DNA of 58,278 nt from Clostridia bacterium. Its GTDB lineage: Bacteria > Bacillota > Clostridia > Christensenellales > UMGS416. Positions within the stretch are counted from its first letter, which is position 1. Each line of letters starts with the position of its first letter. The position numbers and the translations under genes are program-made. Where the stretch lies: contig DAOWFX010000015.1 of the NCBI GenBank assembly GCA_030637745.1, forward strand, positions 1 through 58,278, written 5' to 3'. Below the pieces are notes generated by a model. It was not told where the DNA came from. It did not search any database and worked only from the letters and a program-made list of their open reading frames with translations. Positions 1,179 to 58,278 of the stretch are shown in pieces.

Positions 1179-3053
1179 CTACTTTTTTCTCTTCCCTCTC
1201 TTTTGATAGTTTCTTGGATTGCTTTTGCGCGTCTTGGCTTCTAAAAAGTCTTTTTCCTTCTTCTTTTCTTCCTTTTTCTCATCCGGTACGAGGCATTTGG
1301 GCCCATATCCAATGAGGTCTTCTCTGCCTGCTTGGGTCAGTGCTTTTCTGACTAAAGCATGATTCTTCCTCATGCGATACTGCAGCAATGCGCGTTGCAT
1401 TCTTTTCTCTTCGCCCTTGGGTACGTAGATGGGTTTCATGTTTCTTGGATCAATACCGGTGAAATACATACAGGTTGAAATGGTGCCGGGTGTCGGGTAG
1501 AAATCCTGCACTTGCTCTGGTGCTATCTTCATATCGCGCATGGTGCATGCAAGCTCTATAGCAGCATTTAAATCGCTCCCCGGATGTGATGAAATAAAGT
1601 AAGGCACTAAATACTGTTCTTTTTTCATCTTTCGGTTACTATCATCAAAGCTTTTTGTAAACTTTTTGAATGTTTCAAAAGATGGCTTTCCCATAGCAGA
1701 CAATACCTTGCGACTCACATGCTCAGGGGCTACCTTCAACTGTCCACTGATGTGATGCTTGCTTAGTTGATTCAGGAATTCTTTACCGTTTCTATCCTCC
1801 AACAGATAGTCATAGCGCAGTCCTGAACGCACAAAGACTTTCTTCACTTCAGGTAACATGCGAATCAGCTTGAGTAACTTTAGATAATCGCTATGGTCTG
1901 CTTCAATTTCGCTACAAACATTAGGATGCATGCACTGTCGGTTTGAACAGGTACCTTGTGTCAATTGTTTTTCACATGAGGGCTTTCTGAAATTGGCTGT
2001 AGGTCCTCCAACATCGTGTATGATGCCTTTAAACTTGGGTTGCTTTATTAGTAAATCAACTTCGCGCATTATAGATTCGTGACTCCGTGCGACAACCACT
2101 CTGCCTTGATGAAAATGGAGTGCGCAAAATGAACATCCACCAAAGCAACCTCGTGCGCTGGTGATGGAAAACTCAACCTCGTTGAGTGCAGGTACGCCCC
2201 CTTGCTTTTCATACATAGGATGATAGGTGCGCATATATGGCAATTCGTAGATGGCATCCAACTGTTTTGTAGTCATCTGCTTTTGTGGCGGGTTTTGTAC
2301 GACATATTTTCGGTGTTGCATTTGCACAATAGGTTTTCCATAGATGGCATCTTGCTGTGCATGATACCTTATAAATGATGACGCAAATGCCCTGCCACCC
2401 TTTTTAACATCGTTGAATGAATCTAAGAACACACTATCCTTTGCAGGTGCTTCAATGAAATTGCATGTGCCTCGAATTCCTTTAATAGATGAAAGCGGTA
2501 CTCCACGATCCAGTAACTTTGCAACCTGCACGATGGCCAGCTCTCCCATACCATATACCAACAAATCAGCGCCGGAGTCTTCCAAGATGGCATGATGTAC
2601 TTTGTCGGTGATGTAATCATAATGTGCAAAACGCCGAAGTGATGCTTCCACTCCACCGATGATTATGGGTGTGTTTTTGTATGCTTGTTTGATGAGATTA
2701 CTATAGACTATGGTGGCGCGATCAGGTCGTAGCCCCATCTTCCCACCGGGTGCATAGGCGTCTTTTTTGCGTCTTTTTTTGTTAACGGTGAAGTGGTTGA
2801 CCATGGAATCCATATTCCCTGAAGATACTAAAAAGCCAAAGCGCGGCGCGCCGAAGACCTTAACACTCTCTACGTTCTTATAATCGGGAAGTGCAATTAT
2901 TGCAACCTTATATCCTGCATCTTCAAGCACTCTTGTTATAATGGCATGTCCAAAACTGGGGTGGTCTACATAGGCTTCGCCTGATACAAAAATAAAGTCA
3001 GGTCTATCCCAGCCTAGTGCGTTCATTTCTTTTATTGTGGTTGGTAAAAACAT
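1179..3053 (-). CDS. YgiQ family radical SAM protein (UPF0313)
   Basis: MFLPTT..GEAYVDHPSFG N-terminus; CFGGCSFC radical SAM motif; QVQDFYPTP. Confidence 0.93.
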   Translation of the reverse strand: MFLPTTIKEMNALGWDRPDFIFVSGEAYVDHPSFGHAIITRVLEDAGYKVAIIALPDYKNVESVKVFGAPRFGFLVSSGNMDSMVNHFTVNKKRRKKDAYAPGGKMGLRPDRATIVYSNLIKQAYKNTPIIIGGVEASLRRFAHYDYITDKVHHAILEDSGADLLVYGMGELAIVQVAKLLDRGVPLSSIKGIRGTCNFIEAPAKDSVFLDSFNDVKKGGRAFASSFIRYHAQQDAIYGKPIVQMQHRKYVVQNPPQKQMTTKQLDAIYELPYMRTYHPMYEKQGGVPALNEVEFSITSARGCFGGCSFCALHFHQGRVVVARSHESIMREVDLLIKQPKFKGIIHDVGGPTANFRKPSCEKQLTQGTCSNRQCMHPNVCSEIEADHSDYLKLLKLIRMLPEVKKVFVRSGLRYDYLLEDRNGKEFLNQLSKHHISGQLKVAPEHVSRKVLSAMGKPSFETFKKFTKSFDDSNRKMKKEQYLVPYFISSHPGSDLNAAIELACTMRDMKIAPEQVQDFYPTPGTISTCMYFTGIDPRNMKPIYVPKGEEKRMQRALLQYRMRKNHALVRKALTQAGREDLIGYGPKCLVPDEKKEEKKKEKDFLEAKTRKSNPRNYQKRGKRKK

Positions 3054-3154
3054 GAGGCTTATTATACATGATAATTTGCTGAATGTATATTGAACAAAGT
3101 GTGTACTACTGTGTCACAGGAAATAACAGTTTTAATCAATATAAGTATATTTCA

Positions 3155-4072
3155 CTACGCTTTTTTTGTATTGGCTTTTCTTATTACAGGAAGTCCCTTT
3201 TGTGAGAATATATCATAGACTTCTGCCATGTATTCTTTTGTTGGAACATCAAATGTGGTGCCTTTTGCATCCTTGCCCATGGACTCTAGTTTGCCTGCAC
3301 CCAAGCTATGATATGCAAGCGGTTCAACTGCCTGTATATTGTCAAGTTTTAATAGGAAATCTGCAGTCATGTAGAAGTTTTCTATATTATCATTTACACT
3401 TGGTATGACAGGGACTCTTATCAGAATGGGAATGCCTTCTTTGTCTAGTTTCTTTAGATTGCTAAGAATTCTTTTATTGTCTGCGCCTGTGTGCTTTTTG
3501 TGTGCTATGGGATCCATAATCTTTAAGTCATATAAAAATAGGTCTGTATAGGGGATTACTTCTTCAAATGATGTATACGCAACATTGCCTGCTGTGTCAA
3601 CTGCTGTGTGGATTTCATCTTCTTTACATTTGCGCAACACTGAAGCTGTAAATTTACTCTGAAGTAGCGGCTCTCCACCGGAGATCGTAACGCCGCCGTT
3701 TGAATTTTTGTAAAACGCCTTGTCTCTCATGATTTCTTCAAATACTTCATCTACAGTCGTTTTATTGCCTGTAATAATCAAGGCTCCTGAATAACATTCA
3801 TCTGTACAAGTCCCGCATCCGATGCATACACTTCTATCGTAGACTCTTTTGCCATCAACTATAGTGTGAGCATTTTGAGGGCATACATCAAAGCAGCGTC
3901 CGCATCCGATGCATTTTATGAAATGGGTTTGCACTTGTCTTTTTTTTGAGATTGATTCAGGATTATGACACCAAGAACAAGAAAGCGAGCACCCTTTTAG
4001 AAAAACAGTGGTTCTGATTCCCGGACCATCGTAGATTGAAAACTTCTGTATATCAAAAACTACCCCGTTCAC
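3155..4072 (-). CDS. Glycyl-radical enzyme activating enzyme with ferredoxin-like insert
   Basis: DGPGIRTTVFLKGCSLSCSWCHNPES; two CxxCxxCxxxC motifs; GGVTISGGEP; abuts the GRE gene. Confidence 0.95.
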   Translation of the reverse strand: MNGVVFDIQKFSIYDGPGIRTTVFLKGCSLSCSWCHNPESISKKRQVQTHFIKCIGCGRCFDVCPQNAHTIVDGKRVYDRSVCIGCGTCTDECYSGALIITGNKTTVDEVFEEIMRDKAFYKNSNGGVTISGGEPLLQSKFTASVLRKCKEDEIHTAVDTAGNVAYTSFEEVIPYTDLFLYDLKIMDPIAHKKHTGADNKRILSNLKKLDKEGIPILIRVPVIPSVNDNIENFYMTADFLLKLDNIQAVEPLAYHSLGAGKLESMGKDAKGTTFDVPTKEYMAEVYDIFSQKGLPVIRKANTKKA

Positions 4073-6259
4073 TTACAGGCCTTCTACAATTCTATCGACA
4101 ACCAATTGCCTAAAATCAGTTGAAAGACTGGCGAAGTACGCACTAAAACCAGTAACTCTAACGATAAGATTTGGATACTTTGCAGGATCCTTATGTGCTG
4201 CTAGTATCTTTTCCTTGTTAATGATATTGATATTCAATAATGTACCGCCCATATCCATGAAAGTGGATATGAAGGAAGAAACCAAACCAACACCGCCTTC
4301 ATCGATTCCAAAATGCGGATCAAATTCAAGCTGAAGTGGTGCTGTGTTTCCGTAGCCACATTGAACGGATGCTACGGCATTTGCAAGGCCTGTTGGTGTA
4401 TCTGCTTTTGAAAATCCAGGATGCGGATTGGCACCATGGTTAATCGGCCTTCCTGCTTTTCTTCCATCAGGGCTTGCACCGACAACTTTACCCATGGGAA
4501 TTGTATTAGCCCACGAGAACAAGCCGGGCATCAAATTCCTGCCATTGGGTGTGGGTTTTGCTTTGACTAGGGAAGAAAATGTTTCTGATAGCCTGACTGC
4601 GTATTCATCCGACTTTGATCCACCGGAACCATACTTTGCAACACTATGAAGCATCAACCGTTCTCTTTCTGCGCCTTCATAATCAGTCTCCAATAACTTC
4701 ATCATCTCGTTCCATGAAAACTCTTTACCATCTCCAACCATCGCATCGATCGCGCCAAGAGAATCTGCTACTGTCGCAATTCCCGCACCATCAACACACA
4801 TATTGTAGTGCTCTACACTTCCATGACTAATATCAATGCCTTTTTCAATCGGTCCATGGCACAAGAGGTTGAGTACAAGCTCCGGGAAAACTTTGTGCAT
4901 GTGTTCTATATGAAAATCAATGCCTTCTGCAATTGTTGCGATTGCAATCTCTAAATGTTTGCTATAATTCTCATATAAACCTTCTGCAGATGGGTTTTGT
5001 GGTAGATTTTCATAGTACTCTTTTAGCGCAACATCAAAAACTGCAAGGAAATTTACCTTGACGATATCATTCAATGTATATTCAGTCCCCGGAAGTGCAC
5101 ACCAGTGACATCCTGTTTTGGTTCGCATGCGTGCCATTTCCAGAGAATATCCGTTTTTCATAAAGCCTTCATTCATGGACTCGTCACCCAGATATGCAGG
5201 CGTTCCCAACTGATCTTCAAATAGGTACTTGACCGATAGTTTCATTATTTCTGGATTAATATTCTTATGTGTCCGCAAGCAAATGCTTGTTGGGATTTTA
5301 ATTCTATGGGCAGCTTCTATCATAAAGAAAGAAATGTCATTGGTTCTATCATTCCCATCAAGATCCGTACCACAAATCTGATAATATTGATTGTCTTTAA
5401 CTAACAAACATGCAATATGGAAAATGGCTTCCTCATCGTCAATACGCCCTAATTTTTTATCTTTTAGATAGTATGGGTACAAATAATCATCAATCGCACC
5501 GCCTGCACCACTATAGTTATACATTACAGCAGCCATGAGAAACCATGCTATCCACTGAACCGCTTCAAGAAAGGTCTCCGGAGGCTTGCTAACAATATTT
5601 TCATTGGCTATCGCCATTTTCAAAAGACTTTCCTTGATCTCAGGTCTATCTTCCTTTGCTGCCATCTCATAGGCTGCGTCTGCATGCCTTTGGATCCAGT
5701 TTTGAATGCCAAGGAATACGTCTCTTTCAGCATTGTAAAAATCCGATTTGCTCTCATCGTGAATTTCTTGATATTTATCTATTTTCTTTAACAGGCCACC
5801 AAAACCAAGTTCTAATCCCATATCAAAGTCTATATTGAAATGCTGCATTCCGCCGATACCGGATACGATATCATATCTCTTTTGGCGTTCATGTAGGTGG
5901 GAATAGTCAAATTGAGGATCCCACAGAGGTCTTTTGATGTCAAAAAAACTATGCATCCAACCGCCTGCAAGCGAACTCATAGGATCAATATAAATAGGAT
6001 GTGTGTCAAGCAGTTTCCTGTAATTCTTCCCGCAGAGGTAATTCCCCATGAATCGTCCCTCTGGTGTGTTTGTTTCCGGCTCAAAAATAAAATCGGCAGG
6101 AGGTGTAATCAGCCCTTTGTCATCCATGTCCCAGTAACCATCGGTGCCATCTCTTTTCTGTTTTTCAAGCGTATGGATACCCTTAAGCTTGTTGATTGCA
6201 TCCATTCTATCTTGATATGTTAGTCTCTTACTCAAAACCATTTCCTCCGCCGTAGACAT
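4073..6259 (-). CDS. Glycyl-radical enzyme (PFL superfamily), substrate unknown
   Basis: C-terminal LIVRVTGFSAYF Gly loop; VGASPDGRKAG; Cys loop TGCHWC; start may be TTG at ~6235 (GGAGG RBS). Confidence 0.93.
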   Translation of the reverse strand: MSTAEEMVLSKRLTYQDRMDAINKLKGIHTLEKQKRDGTDGYWDMDDKGLITPPADFIFEPETNTPEGRFMGNYLCGKNYRKLLDTHPIYIDPMSSLAGGWMHSFFDIKRPLWDPQFDYSHLHERQKRYDIVSGIGGMQHFNIDFDMGLELGFGGLLKKIDKYQEIHDESKSDFYNAERDVFLGIQNWIQRHADAAYEMAAKEDRPEIKESLLKMAIANENIVSKPPETFLEAVQWIAWFLMAAVMYNYSGAGGAIDDYLYPYYLKDKKLGRIDDEEAIFHIACLLVKDNQYYQICGTDLDGNDRTNDISFFMIEAAHRIKIPTSICLRTHKNINPEIMKLSVKYLFEDQLGTPAYLGDESMNEGFMKNGYSLEMARMRTKTGCHWCALPGTEYTLNDIVKVNFLAVFDVALKEYYENLPQNPSAEGLYENYSKHLEIAIATIAEGIDFHIEHMHKVFPELVLNLLCHGPIEKGIDISHGSVEHYNMCVDGAGIATVADSLGAIDAMVGDGKEFSWNEMMKLLETDYEGAERERLMLHSVAKYGSGGSKSDEYAVRLSETFSSLVKAKPTPNGRNLMPGLFSWANTIPMGKVVGASPDGRKAGRPINHGANPHPGFSKADTPTGLANAVASVQCGYGNTAPLQLEFDPHFGIDEGGVGLVSSFISTFMDMGGTLLNINIINKEKILAAHKDPAKYPNLIVRVTGFSAYFASLSTDFRQLVVDRIVEGL

Positions 6260-6319
6260 CTATTTTATTTTATTTACTTGATGCTACATGCAACACGCAG
6301 GTATATTTTCGCTATATAT

Positions 6320-7006
6320 CTATTTATCGAACTTTTTGTACTCATTGCATAGTGGGTGAATAATTGCTTCATCTTCGTCGATTTCAGAAAAACGTCCCAT
6401 CTCTAGTGCAAAGTGATTGTCCACATTGTCATCATTGACTGATGATACTTCGCCAACGACCAAATCGCCTGCGCCTTTTTTGGCCCAGAACAAGTGATAC
6501 ATCCGTGGTGTGAGTGAAATACTGTTGCCGTTGGTGACTTCTACCACTTCGCCTGCCTTGACAGTGTGCTGGATGCCATCCATGTAAACTATAACATCAC
6601 TATCATAATCCACTGTGTTATCATCGTGTGCATTGTATAATTGAAGCGCTAAGATGCCACCGGATCTATTAATGATATCTTCTGTTTTTGAATAATGAAA
6701 ATGCAACGGAAGGCTCTGCCCATCGTGCAATAATATTAGCTTTTCTGCATATGGTGTTCCAATAGATGAATCCTGTTGGTCACCGTTTCTGACGGTAAAT
6801 AATACGCCACCGAGTTCATCGTATTTGTCCATGTGATAGTCTGTAATATCCCAACCCAGCATGGTTTTTGTGATGGATTGTGTGCCGGCGAGGCACTTTT
6901 GCCATTCTGTTTTCTTAAAATGTGCAAACACCGGAAGGTTGATATTGTGTTTGGCAACTAAGTTTTTTGCCCACTCAATTTCTCTGTTGATTAATGATCT
7001 TTTCAT
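6320..7006 (-). CDS. D-lyxose/D-mannose family sugar isomerase (cupin)
   Basis: MKRS.IN, GWDITD, YAEK, PLHFHYSKTEDIINR and GEVSSVNDD motifs. Confidence 0.88.
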   Translation of the reverse strand: MKRSLINREIEWAKNLVAKHNINLPVFAHFKKTEWQKCLAGTQSITKTMLGWDITDYHMDKYDELGGVLFTVRNGDQQDSSIGTPYAEKLILLHDGQSLPLHFHYSKTEDIINRSGGILALQLYNAHDDNTVDYDSDVIVYMDGIQHTVKAGEVVEVTNGNSISLTPRMYHLFWAKKGAGDLVVGEVSSVNDDNVDNHFALEMGRFSEIDEDEAIIHPLCNEYKKFDK

Positions 7007-7126
7007 GTTATCTCCTTTAAAAGAAAACGTTCGTGCTTATTTGTGGTTTATTTTATCAATAGTTGTGTTTTTTTTCAATACAAATATACGCTTCAAGTGG
7101 TATAATAATGTTATAAAAAATTGTAG

Positions 7127-8176
7127 GTGGACAATATGCAAAAAACAATGAAAGCACTTGTAAAAAAATACCCCAAACAAGGACTGTGGCTTGAAGAAGT
7201 ACCCGTTCCTGAAATCGGGATGCACGATGTGCTGGTGAAGGTAATGAAGACTTCTATCTGTGGCACGGATGTACATATATATAATTGGGATGAATGGTCT
7301 CAAAAGACCATCCCTGTACCCATGACTATCGGGCATGAGTTCGTAGGCAGGATTGTTGCCTTGGGAAGCGATGTACATGACTTTGAAATCGGTGATATCG
7401 TATCAGCAGAAGGACACTTGGTATGTGGAAAATGCAGAAACTGCCTTGCAGGTAGGCGACATTTATGTCACTTAACAAAAGGCATTGGTGTGAATCGCTC
7501 AGGCGCTTATGCAGAGTTTATAAGTGTACCGGTCACGAACATTTGGCTATGTGCACCTGATATTGACACAGACATCATCAGCTGTTTTGACCCTCTGGGA
7601 AATGCAGTGCATACAGCCCTTGCATTTGATGTACTGGGAGAGGATGTCCTCATCACCGGGGCAGGCCCTATCGGCATCATGGCCATGGCTATTGCAAAAC
7701 ATGCCGGCGCGCGCTATGTGGTAATCACAGATATCAATCCATATCGCTTAGAGCTTGCTGAAAAGATGGGTGCCACCTTGACTGTGGATGTACGGACTGC
7801 ATCCATCGGAGATGCAATGCAAAAACTAGGAATGAAGGAAGGCTTTGATGTGGGCATGGAGATGTCGGGGAATCCAAAGGCATTTTCTGATATGTTAGAT
7901 AGCATGTGCCACGGTGGGAAAATCTCATTGTTGGGCATACATCCACCTGCAACACATATTGATTGGACCAAAGTAGTCTTCAACGGTATCACCATCATGG
8001 GCATCTACGGTCGTGAAATGTATGAAACATGGTACAAGATGACAGCATTTTTGCAGTCGGGATTGGATATTTCCCCAGTCATTACCCATCGGTACCACTA
8101 CGCTGATTTTCAAAAAGGGTTTGATGTGATGCGTAGCGGCAACTCCGGCAAAGTCATACTCAACTGGGAGGAATAA
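7127..8176 (+). CDS. tdh: L-threonine 3-dehydrogenase (start probably 7136 or 7148)
   Basis: [20 protein letters not shown], Cys4 structural Zn site, [17 protein letters not shown]; adjacent to kbl. Confidence 0.97.
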
Positions 8177-13227: not shown

Positions 13228-13746
13228 TTATATAATTATACCTGCCTGATGTTTCATCAAATATACATGTTCTTCTTTGATCAGTTTCTTGATCTCCTCA
13301 ATATCATCTGCAGTAATGTACGGTATTTCAAGTGCGGATGCACCGCAATGGTATTTGACCTTACCATCGGAAGGTATGTATGTATACACATGCGTATCCG
13401 CTTCACCTGCGCAATAAGCACAATCATCATCTATACAACGTGCTACGCGAGTAGGATACTTAACAATAGCTGCACTAATAATATCAGTAAACCTTTTCGA
13501 ATACCCTCTGCAAGCAGAAAACCTCAAGGCGAAGAATGGAAGATGTTCTTTGTTTCTCCTGAAGCCGATTTTTGAGATTTGCTTGTTATGCTGGTCGTGT
13601 TTAAATATGATATTTGACCTTTGCTTTTGTGGATTATAACCGAGGTCAGACAAATGCATGATGATATCTTGATATAACGGTCTGATTTCATCATCAAGCA
13701 TTGATAAAAATGAATTGACCAATTCCTCTTGTTTTTTTGTATTCAT
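13228..13746 (-). CDS. Conserved hypothetical protein with Cys cluster (CIDDDCAYC..HC), possibly metal-binding
   Basis: ORF track 13228-13791, likely start MNTKK at 13746; the diverged paralog at 10836-11240 supports coding status. Confidence 0.75.
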   Translation of the reverse strand: MNTKKQEELVNSFLSMLDDEIRPLYQDIIMHLSDLGYNPQKQRSNIIFKHDQHNKQISKIGFRRNKEHLPFFALRFSACRGYSKRFTDIISAAIVKYPTRVARCIDDDCAYCAGEADTHVYTYIPSDGKVKYHCGASALEIPYITADDIEEIKKLIKEEHVYLMKHQAGIII

Positions 13747-13772
13747 CGTAGATAAGTATCCTTTTAAAATTA

Positions 13773-14159
13773 TTAGACTGCAATCCACCAAAACACACCA
13801 TACTTATCAATTAAGTTGGAACAGTATTCATTCCAGGGACATGGGCAGGGACCATCAAATACATGTCCTCCTTCACTTAAAATATCATATGCCTTTTTTA
13901 CTGCTTCTTTGCTTCCTAAACACATATTCATCGCCATGGTTTGCCATTTGTCCTTGTTGCCAAAAAAAGTGTCAATTGGCGCTTCTGCAATCGCCATGAA
14001 TTGTTCTCCATCAATAAACAATACGCAATGCGCGTACGATTTATTATCTTTATCTAATATTTTTTGGCTTATTTCTGCACCAAAAGCTTTGCAATACATA
14101 TCTACCGCTTTAAAACTATCTTTTACATAGAGATTAACCCCAAATATTCTAAATCCCAT
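13773..14159 (-). CDS. PhnB-like VOC family protein
   Basis: AVDMYCKAFGA, YAHCVL, PWNEYCSNLIDKYGVFWWI; GGAGG RBS. Confidence 0.88.
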   Translation of the reverse strand: MGFRIFGVNLYVKDSFKAVDMYCKAFGAEISQKILDKDNKSYAHCVLFIDGEQFMAIAEAPIDTFFGNKDKWQTMAMNMCLGSKEAVKKAYDILSEGGHVFDGPCPCPWNEYCSNLIDKYGVFWWIAV

Positions 14160-35975: not shown

Positions 35976-37076
35976 CTACGATTTGTGTAGTTTTCCATTT
36001 TCGATGATACGAATATCAACGTCGTTTCTGTCGTGAAGTAGCTTCTTATCAATATCCACACAAGTGATGAATGTTTGGACATTGCCGATATAATTTAGCA
36101 GCCATGTCCTTCTTGAATTGTCCAGCTCAGAAAATACATCATCTAACAATAGCAATGGATACTCCCCTGTAATCTTTTTCATGATATCCACTTCTGCAAG
36201 CTTCATGGATAGTGCACAAGTTCGTTGCTGCCCTTGAGAGCCGAAAGCACGTACATCGATACCATTGACACTCATAATGATATCATCTCGATGTGGTCCT
36301 GCTGTAGTTGTTGTACGCTTAATGTCATTGTCTCGATGCTTTTTAAAATGTGCAACCAACTTTTCTTCTAATTCTTCTTCATTATCTGTCTGGAAAGATG
36401 CTTGATACTTCACCTCAAGCTTTTCCTTGTTTCCTGTAAGCTCACTATGGATTTTGGAGCACTTAGTGTCCAGAGACTTTACAAACTTCGCACGGCGAAC
36501 GCTTAAGTAAGCACCATACTTCGCAAGCTGTGCATCCCAAATATCCAATGTATCTACGTTCTTGGTAACTGCAATTGCTTTTAATAGTGAATTTCTTTGA
36601 TCCAAAGCTTTGATGTATCTTTGTAGATTATAGAAATAGGTACTCGACATCTGAGATAGTGCAATATCAACAAACCGTCGCCTTAAGGATGGACCGCTTT
36701 TGATTAATTGTAGATCTTCTGGTGAAAACATGACAGCATTCATATGCCCCATCAACTGTCCTAATCTTCGTGCAGGAGAATTGTTGATTCTAACCGCTTT
36801 TTTGTTGGTAGATGATAGCTTGATTTCAATACGATGCGTGCCATCATTTTGCATACAGGTTGCATCGATGAACGCAGATGGGCTGCCAAACTTGATCAAT
36901 TCCTTATCTCTTGATGTCCTGTGGCTTCTTCCGGTGCAACAAATGTGAATGGCTTCCAACATATTGGTCTTACCTTGTGCATTCTCCCCGCTGAGTAGTG
37001 TAATCTGATCATGCGGCTCAAAGGTCATGGTGTCAAGATTTCTAAAGTTGCTATATGTTATTTTCTTTAACTTCAC
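35976..37076 (-). CDS. recF: DNA replication/repair protein RecF
   Basis: NFRN, GENAQGKTN, RRRFVD, GPHRDD, GSQGQQR, LLLDDVFSELD. Confidence 0.97.
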   Translation of the reverse strand: MKLKKITYSNFRNLDTMTFEPHDQITLLSGENAQGKTNMLEAIHICCTGRSHRTSRDKELIKFGSPSAFIDATCMQNDGTHRIEIKLSSTNKKAVRINNSPARRLGQLMGHMNAVMFSPEDLQLIKSGPSLRRRFVDIALSQMSSTYFYNLQRYIKALDQRNSLLKAIAVTKNVDTLDIWDAQLAKYGAYLSVRRAKFVKSLDTKCSKIHSELTGNKEKLEVKYQASFQTDNEEELEEKLVAHFKKHRDNDIKRTTTTAGPHRDDIIMSVNGIDVRAFGSQGQQRTCALSMKLAEVDIMKKITGEYPLLLLDDVFSELDNSRRTWLLNYIGNVQTFITCVDIDKKLLHDRNDVDIRIIENGKLHKS

Positions 37077-39331
37077 GTTGCTTCGCCATCGTCTATATCT
37101 TTTTTAGTAGACTCTTCCTCGTCTTCTGATGATGTGAAATTTGGAAGACCTCCAAGGATTTCGCTAGGCATCAGATACGTTCTTGGATTTTCATCTTCTA
37201 AATTCTTCTTTTTGTCTATAGGTGGTTCCTGATTGCCTGCTCTTTCACTTCTTTTATTATAGGGTTCATAGACTGTGAAGTAATCATCTTCATTGGCTAT
37301 AGATTCATGCTGATCCACTAGATGCTCCATGAAAGAAATATCCTTATCAAGCTCACTTTGATTTTCTTCATCTGTGTTAGTATCTAAGGTATCTTGTGAT
37401 GCATTACTTTCATCTTTCTGCAAAGACTCATCTTCATCATCTGCATACATCATCGATATAATATCGTCACTTTGGGTGATGATTTTCTCACCCTCATCTT
37501 TGAAAACCTCTTTTTTTAACTCCTCTATATCCTCATTTGGATCATTGAACTGGAACATATCATCATAAAAGCGACCGTATGACTTCTTGTCCTCACTATC
37601 TTCTTCAAGGTCATCGCTGGGAAGGTCTTCAATATCACTGGGTCGATCTTCTATGTCACTGGGACGTTCTTCAATATCACTAGGAAGATCTATAAAATCA
37701 TCTTCCTCAGGCTCAATACTTTCTTGAACTTTCTCCAGTGGTTGAATAACAGTTTCATAGGTATCTGGTTCTTGTGTAATATCTGTTATTTCAACTGATG
37801 CTTTTTGAATCTCACTATCTGACTGTACATACAAGTCATCATCAATGCCTAAAACATCATTGATATCTGAGAGTAATTCTGCTTGATCCTCTTTGTCCTC
37901 TACTGGCGGCACTTGCATTATGTGAGTTTCATCTTCTACTCTATCGATGATTTCTTCTTGCTTACTAGGTGGCATTTCTCTTACGCCATCATTTTTCTCA
38001 TCAATGAGCCGCAGTGCCCAATCCAGTGTTTCAAAACTGTCTGCTTTTTTTGCTTTAGAATGTGAATTTCTATTTAGTGATATTGCTGCTTGATGTAAAG
38101 GAGATGTGTATTGGTCTTCCCATTCTTTTACGTTTTCTATGAATGCACCATCTGGTGCTGATTGTGACGATGGGACTGCCTCTATTTTGGCAGCAAGTTG
38201 CGGTGAAGCATCATAGTCCTCTTCAATCTGTGCTTGGACTTCGTAGACTACAACATTTCCCGGATGAATATTCTTCTTGGCGGCAATAGCTGCTGCAACT
38301 CCCGCTGCCTTACCTGTTGCAAGATGCAGTGCAATTCCATTAATCAACTCAACAACGTTCATATGCATGCCGATATTCTTACCACATAATAAAAGATTAT
38401 GATAGATAGATGAAACAAGCGCATCATATGGAATTGAAAAATGAGTGGTATTGTTCTCGTCTGTTTGTGTTACGACATAATTGTCAAATTCTTTTTGGGA
38501 AACGATGTCATCATAAGACAGTAGATACTTTGCCTTTGAAGTATGGTTCACGTCGTAGAATACATTTTTTGTTGTTCCGATAATGGAAGCGTTTTCAAAC
38601 CCAAAGCCAAATGCCTGTAAGAACTTCATCGCCTTTTGAGTCTGTATCCGCATAACCTTTCCCATATCTTTATCAACATCCTTATCACTAACTACCAGCA
38701 ATGCAATATCGCCGCGCACTGTAGGAAGAATGTTTATGCCAATATCGTAATCCAATTCACCTTTTTTCTTTGCACTAGTGACATTGTCCTGTAGCAACTG
38801 CTGTGCTTCTTTGCTATAGCATCTGCCACCAATGGTTTCCACCTTTCCGATGAAGGCGGTCATATAGCATTTCTTTTCTCCTGTAAAATCATTTTGACCC
38901 GTTAAGTGTTCAACGATGGAAATACCAGACGCATCAATAAACACTTTTGCAGAAACCAGCTTCTTTCCACTGGGAGTTAGACACATCACAGATGCAATCG
39001 CATTCTCTTTTACATCTATTGATATCACTTCATGGTCACATAGTACCTGTGTGCCACTTTTTTCAAGTAATGAATAGTAGCGATCAATGAGTTCTTCCGG
39101 GTGAAATATATTTTGATTCCATGCTTTTTTGATAATACCATCTAAAAAGATACGAGAAGATGCATCAATATGTCCTTTGATCGTATGAATTTGTGCTTTG
39201 AGTGCACTTCCGCCAATCACTGAGTCCTTTTCAATGAGTACAGTTTGTACGCCATTTTGTGCAGCGTACATCGCAGCTGCGATCCCAGATGGACCTGCAC
39301 CGATTATTGCAACATCAAAAACATGACTCAT
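37073..39331 (-). CDS. FAD-dependent oxidoreductase-like domain fused to a ~370-aa acidic low-complexity tail
   Basis: IIGAGPSG..LIEK..GG, FIDASG, IPYDAL..NLLLCGK, GKAAGVAAA; D/E-rich C-terminal half. Confidence 0.75.
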   Translation of the reverse strand: MSHVFDVAIIGAGPSGIAAAMYAAQNGVQTVLIEKDSVIGGSALKAQIHTIKGHIDASSRIFLDGIIKKAWNQNIFHPEELIDRYYSLLEKSGTQVLCDHEVISIDVKENAIASVMCLTPSGKKLVSAKVFIDASGISIVEHLTGQNDFTGEKKCYMTAFIGKVETIGGRCYSKEAQQLLQDNVTSAKKKGELDYDIGINILPTVRGDIALLVVSDKDVDKDMGKVMRIQTQKAMKFLQAFGFGFENASIIGTTKNVFYDVNHTSKAKYLLSYDDIVSQKEFDNYVVTQTDENNTTHFSIPYDALVSSIYHNLLLCGKNIGMHMNVVELINGIALHLATGKAAGVAAAIAAKKNIHPGNVVVYEVQAQIEEDYDASPQLAAKIEAVPSSQSAPDGAFIENVKEWEDQYTSPLHQAAISLNRNSHSKAKKADSFETLDWALRLIDEKNDGVREMPPSKQEEIIDRVEDETHIMQVPPVEDKEDQAELLSDINDVLGIDDDLYVQSDSEIQKASVEITDITQEPDTYETVIQPLEKVQESIEPEEDDFIDLPSDIEERPSDIEDRPSDIEDLPSDDLEEDSEDKKSYGRFYDDMFQFNDPNEDIEELKKEVFKDEGEKIITQSDDIISMMYADDEDESLQKDESNASQDTLDTNTDEENQSELDKDISFMEHLVDQHESIANEDDYFTVYEPYNKRSERAGNQEPPIDKKKNLEDENPRTYLMPSEILGGLPNFTSSEDEEESTKKDIDDGEAT
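37602..37692 (-). repeat. Intragenic ~21-nt tandem repeat, four units
   Basis: Encodes LPSDIEE-RPSDIED-RPSDIED-LPSDDLEE. Confidence 0.85.
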
Positions 39332-42476: not shown

Positions 42477-43679
42477 ATGGCATCTGAATTTGATTTTCTA
42501 AGGGTAAAATGGCCAAAGCTTGCAGCTATGGCTGCTGATGCAACCCGCTTGGCGGATGTAAGCCCCTCTTCATCATTGTTATCATTGAGAACATATTGCG
42601 AATGGGCTTGTGACATCGCATTGGACTTTTATGAACTCCAAGTCGCAGGGGGCGCATCTCAAATAGAGAAACTAGAATCGCTACAAGCATCCGGTATGGT
42701 ACCCAGTGAGATCTTGCAAAAGTTTCATAACGTCAGAAGTGCAGGAAACCGCGCTTCTATCAAAGAAGCAGATAGCGCAAGCATATTGGTTCATGGATGC
42801 ATTGCAGACTGTCACGACATCGGTCAGTGGCTATTTCGCGAAGCAGAAAAAGAAGGATGGCCACATGTAGATGGCTACACACAGTCCTATGGTGCAATCC
42901 CAATGACGGGACTAAGCAGCTCAGAAGGCGGCGGATATGACGTCGGCGGCGGAGACTACAACAGTAAGTTTTCACTGAAGCGATTCATGCGAAAATATGG
43001 CTCTATCGTGATATTGTTGGTAACCTTGACTGTGTTAGCTGCGATTATCCTCGGTATCACCTATGGACTCAAAAGCTGTAATGAAGAAACTGCACCACCT
43101 CAAAACTCATTTGAAGCAACTGCCGCACCCACTCCGGAAGTAACAAGTATCATCCCAATCACACCTTCTCCAGAACCCACGCCTGAAGTAGAACCGTTTG
43201 ACTTTATTGATGATTTGGCTCTTTCATTGCATTATGATACATTATTCAACAAGGGACATTGGAACTTCAATGATAATACTGATCCGTATGTTATAGGAGG
43301 CAAAACTGTTGACAAAGGGTTGGGAATGTTTATATCAAGCCCTACAATCACAGGGGACAGAGGATCAAAAACAGCAGCATGGAACCTGGGTGGTAATTAC
43401 TATAAGCTGGAGTTTGATATGGGCTGTGAACAATCATTTGGATATGATATTGAAGAAAAGTTTGGAAAATATAAAATCATTATCAATGCAGATGGTGAAC
43501 AAGTTTGGGATAGTGGGTATCATGATTATAAATATTTTGTTGAAGGTTTTGAAGTCACTATTCCTCCTGATACATCACGCTTAGAAATCAAACTAGTTCA
43601 ATACAAGGGAACAAACGGCACACTCAATGTCGTAATGGGTAACTTTAAACTGTTCAAAAACCCTGTAGAAGAAGAATAA
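42477..43679 (+). CDS. Membrane protein: DUF4145 (HsdR N-terminal/HEPN-like) domain + TM + Pro/Thr linker + NPCBM/NEW2-like domain
   Basis: SEFDFL..LRTYCE..FHNVRSAGNRA; TM ~177-198; PTPE repeats; IGGKTVDKGLGM..ADGEQVWDSG. Confidence 0.6.
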   Translation: MASEFDFLRVKWPKLAAMAADATRLADVSPSSSLLSLRTYCEWACDIALDFYELQVAGGASQIEKLESLQASGMVPSEILQKFHNVRSAGNRASIKEADSASILVHGCIADCHDIGQWLFREAEKEGWPHVDGYTQSYGAIPMTGLSSSEGGGYDVGGGDYNSKFSLKRFMRKYGSIVILLVTLTVLAAIILGITYGLKSCNEETAPPQNSFEATAAPTPEVTSIIPITPSPEPTPEVEPFDFIDDLALSLHYDTLFNKGHWNFNDNTDPYVIGGKTVDKGLGMFISSPTITGDRGSKTAAWNLGGNYYKLEFDMGCEQSFGYDIEEKFGKYKIIINADGEQVWDSGYHDYKYFVEGFEVTIPPDTSRLEIKLVQYKGTNGTLNVVMGNFKLFKNPVEEE

Positions 43680-49594: not shown

Positions 49595-51265
49595 GTGTTT
49601 AGGAATTATATGCCACGTAGAAGTGATGATGACAAAACAAGTAGTAATCGCAGACGTAGTGAGGGCACCCGCACTACAACTTCACGGCGCTCATTACAGA
49701 AAAATAGTGAAGCAAAAAGGCCTATAAGTAAGCCAACTTCGAAAGAAAAGGTAACCACTGCTAGCGACAAGCCTAAACTATCGTTTGAAGAGAAGTATTT
49801 GGGTAAGTCTGAAGCAAATAAAAAACCTGCTCGCACAAAAAAACCAATTGAAGAAAAAAGAATATCACAGAAAAAGCATTCAAAATCATTGTGGAAATCA
49901 AAACCCACACCAAAAAAAGATATTTCTTCAAAAACTGTTAAAAAAGATGAAGCTAAACCGCTTCGATCTCTTATAGATAAAACCTTAGAGTCAGATGCTC
50001 GCTCAAAAAATAGAAAGCATAAGGTAGATGCAGAGATGCGCAAGAGCTTCATCAAACTCATTGTTATGGTGGCAGTCGGTATCGGTGTTATCATTGGCAT
50101 ATACTATGGGGTACAGTCAATACTTGCAAAGCAAAGCGGATTTGTCGACATTGAAAAAACAGAGCCCCCTAGCGCAGTAAGTACTCAAGTGCCCAAAGAT
50201 AGAAATCAAGCAAATAACACAGCAGAAGGAGAGAGTACCATTACTCCGAATCCTGCTGTGGTGCGCGACATCAGCTATGGTGCTCGTGATATTCAATTTA
50301 AGGAACGACATATCAACATTCCCGGAATATATGATAATGAGTTGTTGTTTTCAGCAGGTTCAGGCAGCCTTTATGTGGGAAGTAATGTTCTTAAAAAGCT
50401 TTATCTTTATAACCTTGATTCAGGTGATGAAACTCTTATAGCAGAAAGCGCTATTGATGGCGGCGTATTTTATGAAACCTTAGTGAATCATAATTGGTTG
50501 GTGTGGCTAGAAACCGATCGTGGCACCAAAAACTACATCATGACCATGAACCGCGCAACAGGTGAGATTAGTAAAATCCAATCTTTCAAAGAAAGCCAAC
50601 CAAAATTGCAGATGTATGGCGATCTATTAGTGTGGATGGAGCAAGTGTCTCCAACTGAGGATAGACTAAGCATGTCAGACCTTAATAACCAAGAATACTT
50701 ACCGATATTTACTTTCACAGATAAAGCTACATATGGAGTATCTTCTCCATGTGTTTATGAGGATACAATAGTATGGGCAGGCCCTGATCCTACACAAAGC
50801 GATGAAGATAAACTGGTTGAAGAACACTCTGCAGTATATTACCTTGAACTTGTAGCAGATGAAACCGGTGCACTAGGTGATGCTGAATACTTTTCTCCCA
50901 ATACATATGTACATGAACCTTTATACAACGGTGATGTATTTGTATGGCTAGATGGTAACAAGTCACCTAACTCCAACCTCTATGTGGGAAGACCGGACGA
51001 GGAAGCAAAACTGATTGCCAATGGTGTCACGACATATTCTGTCGGCGATGGTATCGTTGTCTACGGGAAAGACCAGGCAGTTTGGGTATATATCACTGCA
51101 ACAGACGAACTATGCAGGCTCACCTCTCCCAACGAAAAAGGCATGTTACCTGCTGTGACAAAGCGAACTGTAGTATGGTATAATTTATCAGTAGAATCAG
51201 ATAAAAACGTCTTGCGATTTAAGGTGTTGACAGATGATGAACTGTATCCCGGAGGAATGGACTAA
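49595..51265 (+). CDS. Single-pass membrane protein: basic disordered N-terminus, likely extracellular beta-propeller
   Basis: K/R/S-rich first ~150 aa, TM ~152-172, repeated LVW/IVW/VVW blades; stop overlaps the radA start. Confidence 0.65.
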   Translation: MFRNYMPRRSDDDKTSSNRRRSEGTRTTTSRRSLQKNSEAKRPISKPTSKEKVTTASDKPKLSFEEKYLGKSEANKKPARTKKPIEEKRISQKKHSKSLWKSKPTPKKDISSKTVKKDEAKPLRSLIDKTLESDARSKNRKHKVDAEMRKSFIKLIVMVAVGIGVIIGIYYGVQSILAKQSGFVDIEKTEPPSAVSTQVPKDRNQANNTAEGESTITPNPAVVRDISYGARDIQFKERHINIPGIYDNELLFSAGSGSLYVGSNVLKKLYLYNLDSGDETLIAESAIDGGVFYETLVNHNWLVWLETDRGTKNYIMTMNRATGEISKIQSFKESQPKLQMYGDLLVWMEQVSPTEDRLSMSDLNNQEYLPIFTFTDKATYGVSSPCVYEDTIVWAGPDPTQSDEDKLVEEHSAVYYLELVADETGALGDAEYFSPNTYVHEPLYNGDVFVWLDGNKSPNSNLYVGRPDEEAKLIANGVTTYSVGDGIVVYGKDQAVWVYITATDELCRLTSPNEKGMLPAVTKRTVVWYNLSVESDKNVLRFKVLTDDELYPGGMD

Positions 51266-54278: not shown

Positions 54279-54758
54279 TTAGTCGGGGTATACTTTCCAA
54301 TTATCTTCTTCATTTAGAAAGTTCTGCAGCTCATCATTATCTAAAGACATCTTCATATACCGTCCTTCAGCTGCGACTGCTACAACGCCATCGGGTGTGT
54401 AGATCTCTCCTGTGCCTTCAAACATCATACGACTATCTCGCGTAATCCTGCATACTGCTCTAAGCTCAGTATGAAGTGGTAGTGGCTTTCGGTATTTAAT
54501 CTTCAGATCTGTTGTTATTCCCCATTCATTCGGTGACTTTATCTGCAATGCGCGCCCGATTGCTTCATCGAGTATGGATGCTGCAATCCCGCCATGCATC
54601 CTGAATGGGTAGCTTTGATGACTATCTCCAGGAGTGAAATATGCTTCTAATTCCCCATTTTCCATTTCATAAAACTTTGCTTTGATTCCAAAAGTATTTT
54701 GCACACCACAGACAAAGCAATGTTTCGCATTGGGTTGCTTTTTTGTTTTAACAGACAT
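54279..54758 (-). CDS. PaaI family (hotdog-fold) thioesterase
   Basis: CFVCG..N..G, HGGIAASILDE. Confidence 0.88.
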   Translation of the reverse strand: MSVKTKKQPNAKHCFVCGVQNTFGIKAKFYEMENGELEAYFTPGDSHQSYPFRMHGGIAASILDEAIGRALQIKSPNEWGITTDLKIKYRKPLPLHTELRAVCRITRDSRMMFEGTGEIYTPDGVVAVAAEGRYMKMSLDNDELQNFLNEEDNWKVYPD

Positions 54759-54829
54759 TTAATCTCCTTTTAATCTTTTTATTCCTATAATATGTTATAA
54801 TCATTGTATACTTATTTAGGAGGCACTTT

Positions 54830-55162
54830 ATGAATAAAACACCTACATGGCTCACCTATATATTGGGTTGGGTTACCGGATTAATCTTCTTAGGAACTGA
54901 AAAGAACGATGCAGAAATTAGATGGCATGCAGCAAACTCAACCGCAGTATTTGGTGCTGCAACAGTAGTCACCGTCGTATTGAATATATTGTCTAGAATC
55001 CCGTTTCTGGGAGTTCTCTTTGGAATCGTTGGATGGCTAGTTGGCGTAGTAACATTTATCCTTTGGATCGTACTAATGATCAATGCAGGAAACGGTTCAC
55101 GCTTCAGAGTCCCATTCCTTACAGATTTTGCAGAGAAAAACCTACTCAATCTGTTCAAATAA
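54830..55162 (+). CDS. DUF4870-like small membrane protein
   Basis: LTYILGWVTGLIF..EK..RWHA; three TMs; GGAGG RBS. Confidence 0.8.
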   Translation: MNKTPTWLTYILGWVTGLIFLGTEKNDAEIRWHAANSTAVFGAATVVTVVLNILSRIPFLGVLFGIVGWLVGVVTFILWIVLMINAGNGSRFRVPFLTDFAEKNLLNLFK

Positions 55163-55166
55163 GAAG

Positions 55167-57060: not shown

Positions 57061-57945
57061 CTATTCCCTTAGCCTTCCATCTGTATTGCGTTTTTTTCGT
57101 GTTCTTCGTGATGTTAAGCTTTTTAGATGTCGATTATACTTTTTGATGTCAAAGCTCATGTCCATTACATTAAACTTTTCAACCAATTCTCCGACATGAC
57201 GCACTTTGCACGTGGACACAGGAAGCAATACATCGCACCGTGCATCGAAGTCGTCCGTGGACAGGTCAACATCCCACAATTCATAGTATTTGGACGTGTA
57301 CTCCTTTAGGACACCTGTCACCTTGATGACCTCATCTGCATAGGTGACCTCAGCTACTACAACATTGCCAATGTACTTTTCTAAGATCGGATCATATGAT
57401 GCGTCCAGTGTACCTACCAGTTCTTGATTTACCTTCTTTGAGTACGCTGTGGATTGGTTCACCGCAGCACTTCCACCACTAATGGTAGTAAGCTTTCCTG
57501 AAAGCTGAGTAAAGATATCCATCATGGCATCTTTGATCGTGCGAAAGAAGTTGTTGATACTTCTTCCTAGACGTCGAAGTAAGTTGGGATGATATGCGCG
57601 TTTCATCTTTGTTGCACGTTGTTTTTGATTCTTCTGGTTCATATCCTTTGCATAGCGCGCAATGAATGCGATGTTTTTGTATTCTGCTTTATAGATAATA
57701 TAAGACATTTCTTTTGTATGTTTTTGTGTATCAGTTACTCTATATAGAAGTTCTATTCCCGTATTTGCAACATTTAGCTTTCCTATGCTTTCTGTTTTGT
57801 CGTGCATGAATATATTCACATAATCATCTTTAAATCCTTTTAAGGATTTATCGATGTGCACTCTTCTAATGAATGCAATGATTAAAGTGGATGCAACAAT
57901 TAATACGATAGTGAGCAAAAATGTATCTTCAAATATCGCTGTCAT
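57061..57945 (-). CDS. Hypothetical membrane-anchored protein
   Basis: AAGGAGG RBS before ATG at 57945; N-terminal TM; basic C-terminal tail. Confidence 0.7.
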   Translation of the reverse strand: MTAIFEDTFLLTIVLIVASTLIIAFIRRVHIDKSLKGFKDDYVNIFMHDKTESIGKLNVANTGIELLYRVTDTQKHTKEMSYIIYKAEYKNIAFIARYAKDMNQKNQKQRATKMKRAYHPNLLRRLGRSINNFFRTIKDAMMDIFTQLSGKLTTISGGSAAVNQSTAYSKKVNQELVGTLDASYDPILEKYIGNVVVAEVTYADEVIKVTGVLKEYTSKYYELWDVDLSTDDFDARCDVLLPVSTCKVRHVGELVEKFNVMDMSFDIKKYNRHLKSLTSRRTRKKRNTDGRLRE

Positions 57946-58278
57946 CTTTCCTCCTTGAAACAAGTATATAGTATCCTGCATCCTTCTTGATAGTTTCACA
58001 ATTGCAGAAAGTTTCTTGCATTAATTTTTTGATGCTGGAAGCGCCTTGCTTTTTCTGAACGACTAACCAAAGTTCTCCACCTTCATTAAGGTAGTCTTTT
58101 GCATTTTCAATCCATGGATAGTATGCTTTCTTTCCTGCACGAATCGGTGGGTTGGTGATGATAATGTCAAACGTTCCATCAATTTGTGTGTATCCATCCG
58201 ATGCGATGATGTCTGCTTTAGCATTATTTGCTTTAGCATTATTTTCTGCCAAGGATACTGCTCTTTGATTGATATCTG
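57929..58278 (-). CDS. RsmC/YbxB-like small methyltransferase; N-terminus lies beyond the window end
   Basis: DINQRA, TNPPIRAGK, VQKKQGASS. Confidence 0.88.
   Translation of the reverse strand, partial: DINQRAVSLAENNAKANNAKADIIASDGYTQIDGTFDIIITNPPIRAGKKAYYPWIENAKDYLNEGGELWLVVQKKQGASSIKKLMQETFCNCETIKKDAGYYILVSRRKDDSDI

Follow-up and report, generated by a model that had tools for sequence, protein, structure and literature searches.

The only glycyl radical enzymes (GREs) characterised as acting on sugars, according to the sections of a June 2026 review used here (PMC13450708), are PflD and YbiW, which convert 1,5-anhydromannitol-6-phosphate and 1,5-anhydroglucitol-6-phosphate to 1-deoxyfructose-6-phosphate, with the Glu of a Cys-X-Glu (CXE) motif hydrogen-bonded to the C2-OH of the substrate. 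In those sections CXE is kept by all six C-O eliminases, by all C-N and C-S eliminases and by three isomerases, the same motif is described for CutC (section 5.6.2), and a pair of loop Cys residues, both needed, is given for pyruvate formate-lyase (PFL) and TdcE only (PMC13450708). They also describe the roles of His164, Cys433 and Glu435 of glycerol dehydratase, and state that whole GRE clades are still without an experimental function (PMC13450708). Here we analyse a GRE gene that lies between a sugar isomerase gene and an activase gene on contig DAOWFX010000015.1 of a Clostridia bacterium (assembly GCA_030637745.1); the whole 58,278-nt stretch is called the window below. Judged by its sequence, this GRE belongs to a large clade without a characterised member, in which Trp occupies the position of the CXE Glu. 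The best explanation of the locus, which we hold to be slightly more probable than improbable, is that a GRE-activase cassette was acquired beside a resident isomerase gene and that the GRE performs C-O chemistry on a glycan-derived sugar. The genes and sites concerned are as follows.

6320-7006, minus strand: predicted D-lyxose/D-mannose-type cupin isomerase, 228 aa (translation and Pfam)
6260-6319, minus strand: isomerase-GRE spacer, 60 nt
4073-6259, minus strand: PFL-like GRE, an open reading frame (ORF) of 728 aa (translation and Pfam)
3155-4072, minus strand: GRE-activating radical S-adenosylmethionine (SAM) enzyme (activase), 305 aa, GTG start
5078-5113, minus strand: GRE Cys loop GCHWCALPGTEY, read as G383-C384-H385-W386-C387-A388-L389-P390-G391-T392-E393-Y394 (direct translation)
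4145-4162, minus strand: GRE Gly loop VRVTGF, with the predicted glycyl radical site G704 (direct translation)
3779-3991, minus strand: activase cluster motifs, CX3CX2C (C28, C32, C35) and two CX2CX2CX3C (C54-C64, C83-C93)
7050-7078, minus strand: candidate promoter of isomerase, GRE and activase, TTGAAA-17-TAAAAT with a TG (consensus scan)

The GRE matches the Pfam families PFL-like (PF02901; 1.4e-91, 308.5 bits against a cut-off of 24.3) and Gly_radical (PF01228; 4.5e-12, 46.9 bits against 22.2, residues 608-709). With a PFL-like ten-stranded barrel domain, a C-terminal glycyl radical domain of the RVxG[FYW] type and a dedicated activase, its predicted place is in the PFL-like division of the GRE superfamily. 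It nevertheless scores far below the cut-off of every NCBIfam GRE model: 288 against 678 for the PFL2-3 subfamily (TIGR01774), 225 against 1000 for sulfopropanediol dehydratases (NF048009), 197 against 1100 for HypD (NF043068), 182 against 1050 for CutC (TIGR04394), 127 against 1100 for indoleacetate decarboxylase, and 68 against 994 for PFL (TIGR01255), where the match covers the C-terminal part only. The first-pass annotation of the DNA had taken the protein for an uncharacterised GRE, and these scores agree with that view.

Structural comparison gave the same picture. The AlphaFold2 model of the GRE (mean pLDDT 91.4, pTM 0.91) aligns in Foldseek with solved GREs, among them glycerol dehydratase, propanediol dehydratase, PflD, CutC and HypD, at TM 0.74-0.82 and 18-24% identity, and the enzyme is about equidistant from all solved GREs listed. 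Glycerol dehydratase, propanediol dehydratase and PflD reach TM of about 0.8 at 21-24% identity. The top Foldseek match is the glycerol dehydratase of Clostridium butyricum (1r8w; E 7.8e-40, TM 0.80), which also aligns over its full length in a single HMMER alignment. By sequence, E. coli PflD (8yjo; HMMER, 194.4 bits) is the nearest of the solved enzymes, and it is also among the top structural matches (TM 0.81). PFL and TdcE share with the GRE the superfamily, the fold and the Gly-radical domain. ESM Atlas cluster names are limited to the generic 'pyruvate-formate lyase / formate acetyltransferase', and a literature search that left subscription-only papers and supplements outside its coverage found no paper on the clade by title or abstract, nor any pairing a glycyl radical enzyme with a lyxose isomerase. 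The superfamily and the logic of activation are known; within that coverage the catalytic loop, the clade and the gene context are new.

The distinguishing feature of the enzyme is its Cys loop. In HMMER alignments the segment G-C-H-W-C-A-L-P-G pairs with G-C-V-E-L-S-I-P-G of PflD and G-C-V-E-P-Q-K-P-G of glycerol dehydratase, placing C384 on the thiyl Cys of both enzymes and W386 at the position of the CXE Glu. In the AlphaFold2 model C384 sits at a tip between strands 380-381 and 387-388, and G704 at the tip of a hairpin between strands 699-702 and 705-708. C384 is the putative thiyl-radical Cys, W386 takes the place of the CXE Glu, and E393 is an acidic residue specific to the clade.

We examined loop conservation in 121 sequences, the window GRE and the best 120 of 1293 homologs. 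Counted from the Cys (position 0), Gly at -1 and the Cys itself are found in all 121, followed by His in 113, Asn in 5 and Ser in 3 at +1, and by Trp in 121 of 121 at +2. Position +3 is variable (C 68, S 17, Y 14, F 11, L 8, T 2, N 1). Downstream, Pro at +6 and Gly at +7 occur in 120 and 121 sequences, Glu at +9 in 120, and Tyr or Phe at +10 in 118 and 3, respectively. RVTGF or a close variant of it was present in 118 of the 121 (pattern search). The sequences thus define a clade signature, G-C-(H/N)-W-x-x-(I/L)-P-G-x-E-(Y/F), with the Trp and the downstream Glu as its hallmarks. Paralogs at 39-54% identity carry the loop GCNW, with Asn in place of His.

Both loops had been read correctly in the first-pass annotation, as VRVTGF and a GCHWC-type Cys loop, and its statement that the Cys loop fits neither known type is borne out. 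The CXE motif of the GRE 1,2-eliminases and isomerases is absent, the loop reading C-H-W with Trp in place of Glu, and the adjacent Cys-Cys of the formate lyases is absent as well, the residue after the Cys being His, Asn or Ser. The annotation had further suggested that the His or the second Cys takes part in catalysis. A catalytic role of the second Cys (C387) is not supported, because a Cys is present there in only 68 of the 121 sequences; the neighbouring His is better conserved. By alignment, the truly invariant loop feature is the Trp, which the annotation had not singled out.

In a 45-sequence alignment the invariant positions include H140, D144, Y292, R379, C384, W386, E393, D398, F581-S582-W583 and G704, among others. 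By manual count on the HMMER alignment, H140, C384, D398 and Y292 correspond to His164, Cys433, Asp447 and Tyr339 of glycerol dehydratase. The dehydratase differs in Glu435, which is replaced by W386, in Tyr640, which is replaced by F581, and in the His281-Ser282 loop, which is deleted in the GRE alignment. The roles of Asp447, Tyr339 and Tyr640 (opposite D398, Y292 and F581) in the dehydratase are presumed here. The equivalent of the general-acid His (H140, glycerol dehydratase His164) is kept in 45 of 45 sequences, a residue that is not on its own defining for eliminases. To judge from these alignments, the active site seems to resemble one half of a dehydratase site, with another residue as the base.

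An alternative reading makes the protein an ordinary pyruvate formate-lyase, diol dehydratase or glycerol dehydratase whose scores mislead because of divergence. Such a reading would account for the public annotation of its relatives as 'formate acetyltransferase' and for the fact that no second PFL-like gene was found in the window genome, which is 87% complete. We regard it as highly improbable, given the score of 68 against 994 for TIGR01255 and the lack of both the Cys-Cys pair that PFL and TdcE need and the CXE Glu that all six C-O eliminases keep, as given in the review sections cited (PMC13450708). The distribution of the GRE is also patchy: it is absent from all three same-genus genomes (0/3) but present in up to four copies in one related genome, and overall in 5 of 40 relatives.

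The activase points away from PFL as well. It exceeds the cut-off of NCBIfam TIGR02494 (345.8 against 174.35) and falls below that of every substrate-specific activase equivalog. Pfam finds Radical_SAM and Fer4, with Fer4-family matches at residues 51-98; the sequence CSLSCSWC supplies CX3CX2C, and the two CX2CX2CX3C motifs that follow form a two-cluster ferredoxin insert. Solved PFL activating enzyme chains, which are without such an insert, align with the activase only from residue 102 onward. The activase is thus of the ferredoxin-insert, non-PFL type by its motifs, as the first-pass annotation had it, and PflD/YbiW likewise have a ferredoxin-insert activase. A natural activase-GRE fusion occurs in the clade (P0132, 1052 aa, Radical_SAM and Fer4 at residues 16-227, GCNW loop). 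This fusion could also be a read-through gene call. A search for other GRE fusions, of 1275-3640 aa, found none at E <=1e-100, and as a search it is weak evidence.

The clade is large and crosses phyla. A word-indexed search returned 1293 proteins at E <=0.001 among 8000 scored candidates, of which the best 120 are 714-765 aa long and 50-100% identical to the window GRE. Where homologs carry public names, these are 'formate acetyltransferase' or 'pyruvate formate lyase family' only. Named sources are metagenome-assembled genomes (MAGs) of Clostridia, Vallitaleaceae, Actinobacteria, Chloroflexi and Anaerolineae, and by record titles the hosts of the clade are Clostridia, Actinomycetota, Chloroflexota (Anaerolineae), Spirochaetales and one 'Cytophagia' MAG. 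An exhaustive search of a representative library of 1.84 billion proteins gave 4635 matches at E <=0.001 and 946 at <=1e-30, other GREs included, and one metagenome scan gave 542 GRE relatives.

Full-length representatives with at least 39% identity (39-46%) form about 12 clusters at 50% identity, and wherever the loop was located among the representatives at this level it reads GC[HN]W...PGxE[YF]; none was located in P0129 and P0134. At 27-32% identity, eight of nine representatives have GC[QFGH]W loops (the exception is P0158), and GCVE-type loops start at <=31% identity. Short GREs at 26-32% identity (P0150, P0151, P0155, P0157, P0164, P0168, P0171, P0174, P0194 and P0222) carry GCQW, GCFWY and GCGWY, so that a Trp at C+2 may be the mark of a broader superclade, likewise uncharacterised.

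In a FastTree phylogeny of 72 GREs the sister group of the window GRE (support 0.999) consists of seven GREs with 75-78% identity. Directly upstream of six of them lie genes for a GHL6/GlmA-like glycosidase and a PGA_cap-family protein; in the remaining one (L003) the upstream sequence is just 874 nt long. Mannose-6-phosphate isomerase (PMI) is encoded within 3 kb in four. The window genome, at 87% completeness, has no clear GHL6 or PGA_cap ortholog, the best scores with local hidden Markov models (HMMs) being 23 and 53 bits, respectively.

To characterise the gene context of the clade we pooled 105 loci, 16 from genomes, 9 from related genomes and 80 from the metagenome scan, and collapsed them at 90% GRE identity to 86 non-redundant loci, 75 of which have at least 2 kb on at least one side and 47 on both. 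Neighbours were counted with local HMMs built from subsets of the Pfam-annotated neighbours, so that the following counts are lower bounds. An activase gene was found in 48 of 86 loci (44 within 300 nt), a uroporphyrinogen decarboxylase (URO-D)-like gene in 25 (22 within 300 nt), a sugar-type solute-binding protein in 19, an ATP-binding cassette (ABC) permease in 17, a GFO/IDH/MocA oxidoreductase in 13, GHL6 in 7, PGA_cap in 6 (all adjacent) and PMI in 4.

Pfam and NCBIfam scans of the homolog loci identified glycoside hydrolases (GH) of many kinds: GH38 alpha-mannosidase (L040, L041, L047), GH2 (L040, L041), GH130 (L007, L115), GH99 (L007), GH20 (L008, L085), GH123 (L053), GH127 (L062), the GH89 C-domain (L071) and GH116 (L085), along with DUF1861 (L042, L058), DUF2961 (L047, L098) and sulfatases (L080, L112). 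A heparinase II/III-like gene with an MFS_2 transporter gene occurs in L004 and L005. Enolase-superfamily sugar-acid dehydratases are encoded in L090, L105, L113 and L118, with that of L090 above the galactonate dehydratase cut-off, and xylose-isomerase-like TIM barrels in L101 and L112. Kinases are rare (PfkB in L063, a GHMP kinase in L108), aldehyde dehydrogenases occur in L057 and L082, and LacI/GntR-type regulators are among the neighbours. Pfam named no microcompartment shell gene among the homolog neighbours scanned. The context of the clade is thus carbohydrate catabolism across several phyla, with no single sugar dominant, and on these neighbourhoods we consider a carbohydrate-derived substrate rather probable. 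Transport genes near homologs are of the ABC or major facilitator superfamily (MFS) type and not of the phosphotransferase system (PTS), which together with the rarity of kinases suggests an unphosphorylated substrate.

Several observations are compatible with a non-carbohydrate substrate, such as a small organic acid, an amine or a molecule derived from amino acids or peptides, in which case the sugar genes would be bystanders of accessory-gene regions. The closest relatives of the window GRE adjoin genes for TetR, an alpha/beta-hydrolase and the PGA_cap protein; of the NCBIfam models, the last of these matches just that of the peptide epimerase MslH, with 67 bits where the cut-off is 700. 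Aldehyde dehydrogenase, electron transfer flavoprotein (ETF), aminotransferase or peptidase genes lie near some loci, and the window locus is itself flanked by tdh-kbl on one side and, after the activase, by YgiQ on the other. We find this unlikely all the same, since sugar-type ABC transporter components lie within 3 kb in 16 loci and glycoside hydrolases of more than 10 families recur across phyla; in the PGA_cap subclade, moreover, the next gene encodes the GHL6/GlmA-like glycosidase, with the MFS_2 sugar transporter and PMI nearby.

The URO-D-like gene, the commonest neighbour other than the activase, raises a further alternative. The encoded proteins match MtaA/CmuA methyltransferase models weakly, as remote relatives. 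The clade might then cleave a modification of a sugar and not the skeleton, for example by radical cleavage of an ether (an O-methyl group or an anhydro bridge) or by loss of another substituent, together with a URO-D-like (distant MtaA/CmuA-like) protein, the window copy working without this partner or with an unlinked URO-D-like gene. The close spacing of the two genes, the H-x-C-G motif that about 11 of 15 URO-D-like proteins keep (by eye) and the occurrence of DUF2961, which we presume to be linked to anhydro-sugar chemistry, beside two homologs would all fit. The window genome encodes 11 URO-D-like ORFs elsewhere (C16:3907-5037, C93, C102:36062-40413 and C133, four of them in tandem on C102), the best scoring 248 bits (C16:3907-5037), and none lies beside its single GRE; such genes are thus abundant in this genome independently of the GRE. 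The set is also very divergent, with only 5 near-invariant columns and no clear catalytic signature in the alignment, and among the neighbours scanned Pfam named no corrinoid protein and a single MTTB-family methyltransferase (L113). The subclade of the window GRE, moreover, has PGA_cap and GHL6 partners and not URO-D-like ones. We judge cleavage of a modification by the clade to be improbable.

The gene at 6320-7006 matches Pfam PF07385 (Lyx_isomer) over the whole profile (1-222 of 222; 1.1e-85, 286.8 bits against a cut-off of 20.8), and its residues 1-226 align with the solved E. coli O157 D-lyxose isomerase Z5688 (3kmh/3mpb; 193.7 bits). It is by sequence a predicted D-lyxose/D-mannose-type cupin aldose-ketose isomerase. 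The score with NCBIfam NF051472 (LyManIsomGneg), 235.5, is below the equivalog cut-off of 350; the name of this model suggests that it was built on Gram-negative members. With a score below this cut-off, the enzyme may prefer lyxose, mannose or another substrate.

The three genes are co-oriented on the minus strand with a 60-nt gap and then an abutting junction, the activase GTG directly following the GRE stop codon; the ORFs and translations confirm this first-pass description. Translation of the GRE could begin at 6259 or at 6238. An identical database protein (P0005) is 720 aa long and begins at the second ATG, which is preceded by GGAGG and is the start that public gene calls take, so that the true product is probably 720 aa from the ATG at 6238 and the 728 aa given previously, although right for the longest ORF, is probably not the length of the protein. 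A scan of the spacer found neither a terminator-like hairpin nor a promoter-like site on the coding strand. The promoter-like site upstream of the isomerase matches 10 of 12 consensus positions, in a scan that found 14 sites against 13.0 expected in shuffled sequence and is weak evidence alone. Since no terminator lies between isomerase and GRE, the isomerase and the cassette would be co-transcribed, and the three genes probably share one transcript with the isomerase promoter-proximal. A 113-aa ORF at 7037-7378 on the minus strand, which lies between the isomerase and tdh genes and runs into the start of tdh, matches no family and is probably not a gene.

Assembly of the locus was checked against Logan contigs. 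Contigs of run X1 span 2018-4856 (YgiQ-activase-GRE) and 4829-7866 (GRE-isomerase-tdh) with 0 differences, so the junctions on the contig are not one assembler's artefact; run X1 is possibly the source sample and is not independent of the assembly. From a different study, a 266-nt contig of X3 covers 6240-6504 with 2 differences, from the 3' end of the isomerase across the spacer and 20 nt into the GRE ORF. It hints that the isomerase-GRE junction exists in a second sample, the GRE side being too short for a firm bridge. None of the sequencing runs listed as containing the stretch is an RNA run.

The first-pass annotation had proposed that this GRE acts on a sugar supplied by the isomerase, for example by C-C cleavage of a ketose, and had named conservation of the neighbourhood as a check. 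No PF07385-like ORF was found in any of the 86 non-redundant GRE loci (phmmer, E <=1e-3), and tblastn with the isomerase found none in the 16 genome loci with GRE homologs. Directly downstream of the GRE homolog of L051 lies a gene for a 228-aa Cupin_2 protein, which has no detectable relationship to the isomerase (BLASTP E 0.92). The isomerase itself is found in 16 of 41 genomes searched (the window genome, G000, counted), including the three same-genus genomes that have no GRE. In two of these, G003 and G001, an isomerase 75% and 73% identical is divergent from tdh-kbl (tdh and kbl 82% identical), as in the window. What follows the isomerase there (L038/L039) is a 4HBT thioesterase gene, DUF4870 and an alanyl-tRNA synthetase (AlaRS)-like gene.

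The window homologs of the 4HBT gene and of the AlaRS-like gene (593 aa, tRNA-synt_2c and tRNA_SAD) lie at 54279-56948 on the minus strand, about 47 kb from the isomerase. This displacement indicates a large rearrangement with one breakpoint exactly at the isomerase-GRE junction. YgiQ is at least 74 kb from the isomerase in both G001 and G003, and no activase or HMGL-like homolog was found within 1.5 kb of the isomerase in any of the three congeners. As the isomerase-tdh-kbl arrangement exists without the GRE in two congeners, the GRE-activase pair is best seen as a newcomer at a synteny breakpoint beside a resident isomerase.

We therefore asked how well a dedicated operon would still explain the locus, one in which the isomerase turns D-mannose or D-lyxose into the ketose (D-fructose or D-xylulose) that the GRE then cleaves or otherwise transforms, for instance by radical C-C cleavage. 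The layout of the genes would suit it, with the promoter-like site upstream of the isomerase, as would the X3 contig, the class I PMI gene within 3 kb in four loci of the closest GRE relatives and the mannoside-active GH38, GH130, GH99 and DUF1861 that recur near more distant homologs. Yet a PF07385-like gene is absent from all 86 loci and from the 16 genome loci, and its presence with tdh-kbl in G001 and G003 implies a GRE-independent role of an isomerase that was there first. Nor is there a sequence pointer to C-C cleavage, the PFL Cys-Cys pair being absent and the second Cys variable. We consider a dedicated operon decidedly unlikely, and the isomerase is probably not a conserved partner of the GRE. 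A functional link in this organism, through mannose/fructose or lyxose/xylulose interconversion, is possible and finds no support in the context. Of the first-pass proposal, then, the sugar substrate is favoured by the carbohydrate genes near homologs, the isomerase as conserved supplier is not, and nothing specific speaks for C-C cleavage of a ketose. The isomerase-GRE operon would be a local accident of rearrangement, for which reason guesses at the substrate should come from the conserved neighbours of the clade and not from the isomerase.

Under the explanation we favour, an acquired GRE-activase cassette beside a resident isomerase, the reaction might run as follows. As a member of its family, the activase, which has the CX3CX2C motif of the SAM cluster and those of two auxiliary clusters of ferredoxin type, would abstract a hydrogen from Gly704. 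By analogy with the solved GREs to which the enzyme aligns, the glycyl radical would then generate a thiyl radical on Cys384, which would abstract a hydrogen from the substrate. There would follow a C-O-cleaving elimination or isomerisation of an unphosphorylated, glycan-derived sugar or derivative, with Glu393 or His/Asn385 as candidates for the base in place of the CXE Glu, and with the half-site of H140 and D398 retained. Trp386 may stack on the sugar (pyranose) ring. For the chemistry taken by itself, C-O-cleaving elimination or isomerisation of a sugar-derived molecule, we hold the case to be close to balanced and a little short of even.

The substrates of PflD and YbiW are 6-phosphates imported by the PTS, and aldolases follow. 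Apart from their structural likeness, PflD and the window GRE align in the thiyl Cys, the Gly loop, the PG after the Cys loop and an Asp at C+14. The differences are considerable: identity is 21-24%, the window GRE is about 50-100 residues shorter, the known enzymes have CXE where the window clade has C-(H/N)-W, and the ABC or MFS transporters and rare kinases near the homologs of the clade point to an unphosphorylated substrate.

Some observations weigh against an acquired cassette with C-O chemistry on a glycan-derived sugar. The isomerase and the GRE are on the same strand, only 60 nt apart and with no terminator between them, so real coupling in this organism is possible, and a further mannose-fructose isomerase, PMI, is encoded near the GRE in four loci of the closest relatives. 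The neighbourhoods are heterogeneous, with no single sugar and many loci without an informative neighbour; 27 of 71 tree tips are scored 'none' for the six families considered, partly because contigs are short. Without the CXE Glu, the reaction could be of a kind that has nothing to do with elimination. Finally, the TetR, alpha/beta-hydrolase and PGA_cap genes of the closest relatives, the last with its distant match to MslH, are compatible with a substrate other than a sugar.

Paralogs of the GRE accumulate in some related genomes. G021 holds four (54, 46, 45 and 39% identity), which lie in four distinct sugar loci, L040, L042, L043 and L048. G020 has the loci L041 and L047, and in both genomes a serine recombinase gene flanks the copy with 39% identity.

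Elsewhere in the window, about 30 kb from the GRE, are two genes of families also seen near its homologs, followed below by ORFs of 187-556 aa without a Pfam match at E <=1e-6.

37073-39331, minus strand: 752-aa PF12831 FAD-dependent oxidoreductase; the family recurs beside GRE homologs in L042, L091 and L126
40240-41331, minus strand: MR_MLE enolase-superfamily gene; the family recurs beside GRE homologs in L090, L105, L113 and L118
10875-11438, plus strand: ORF without a Pfam match
13228-13791, minus strand: ORF without a Pfam match
42477-43679, plus strand: ORF without a Pfam match
49595-51265, plus strand: ORF without a Pfam match
57061-57999, minus strand: ORF without a Pfam match

The clade breaks the CXE rule of the characterised eliminases and isomerases in a conserved way, and it is large, spans several phyla and lies in glycan-utilisation loci. 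This makes it a good lead for enzyme discovery and a concrete, widespread target. Finding out what it catalyses would probably bring to light new radical chemistry of carbohydrates and could explain many 'uroporphyrinogen decarboxylase family' genes in sugar loci. A bolder proposal, which we put forward tentatively and regard as doubtful, is that the C-(H/N)-W GREs are an eighth mechanistic class of GREs, which in anoxic sediments and guts would cleave C-O bonds (ring, glycosidic or ether) of unphosphorylated glycan sugars by radical chemistry without a CXE Glu, with the invariant Trp stacking on the sugar and a hitherto unrecognised URO-D-like partner assisting in many lineages. If true, this would be a second widespread radical route in anaerobic carbohydrate catabolism, beside the 'anhydroglycolysis' of PflD/YbiW.

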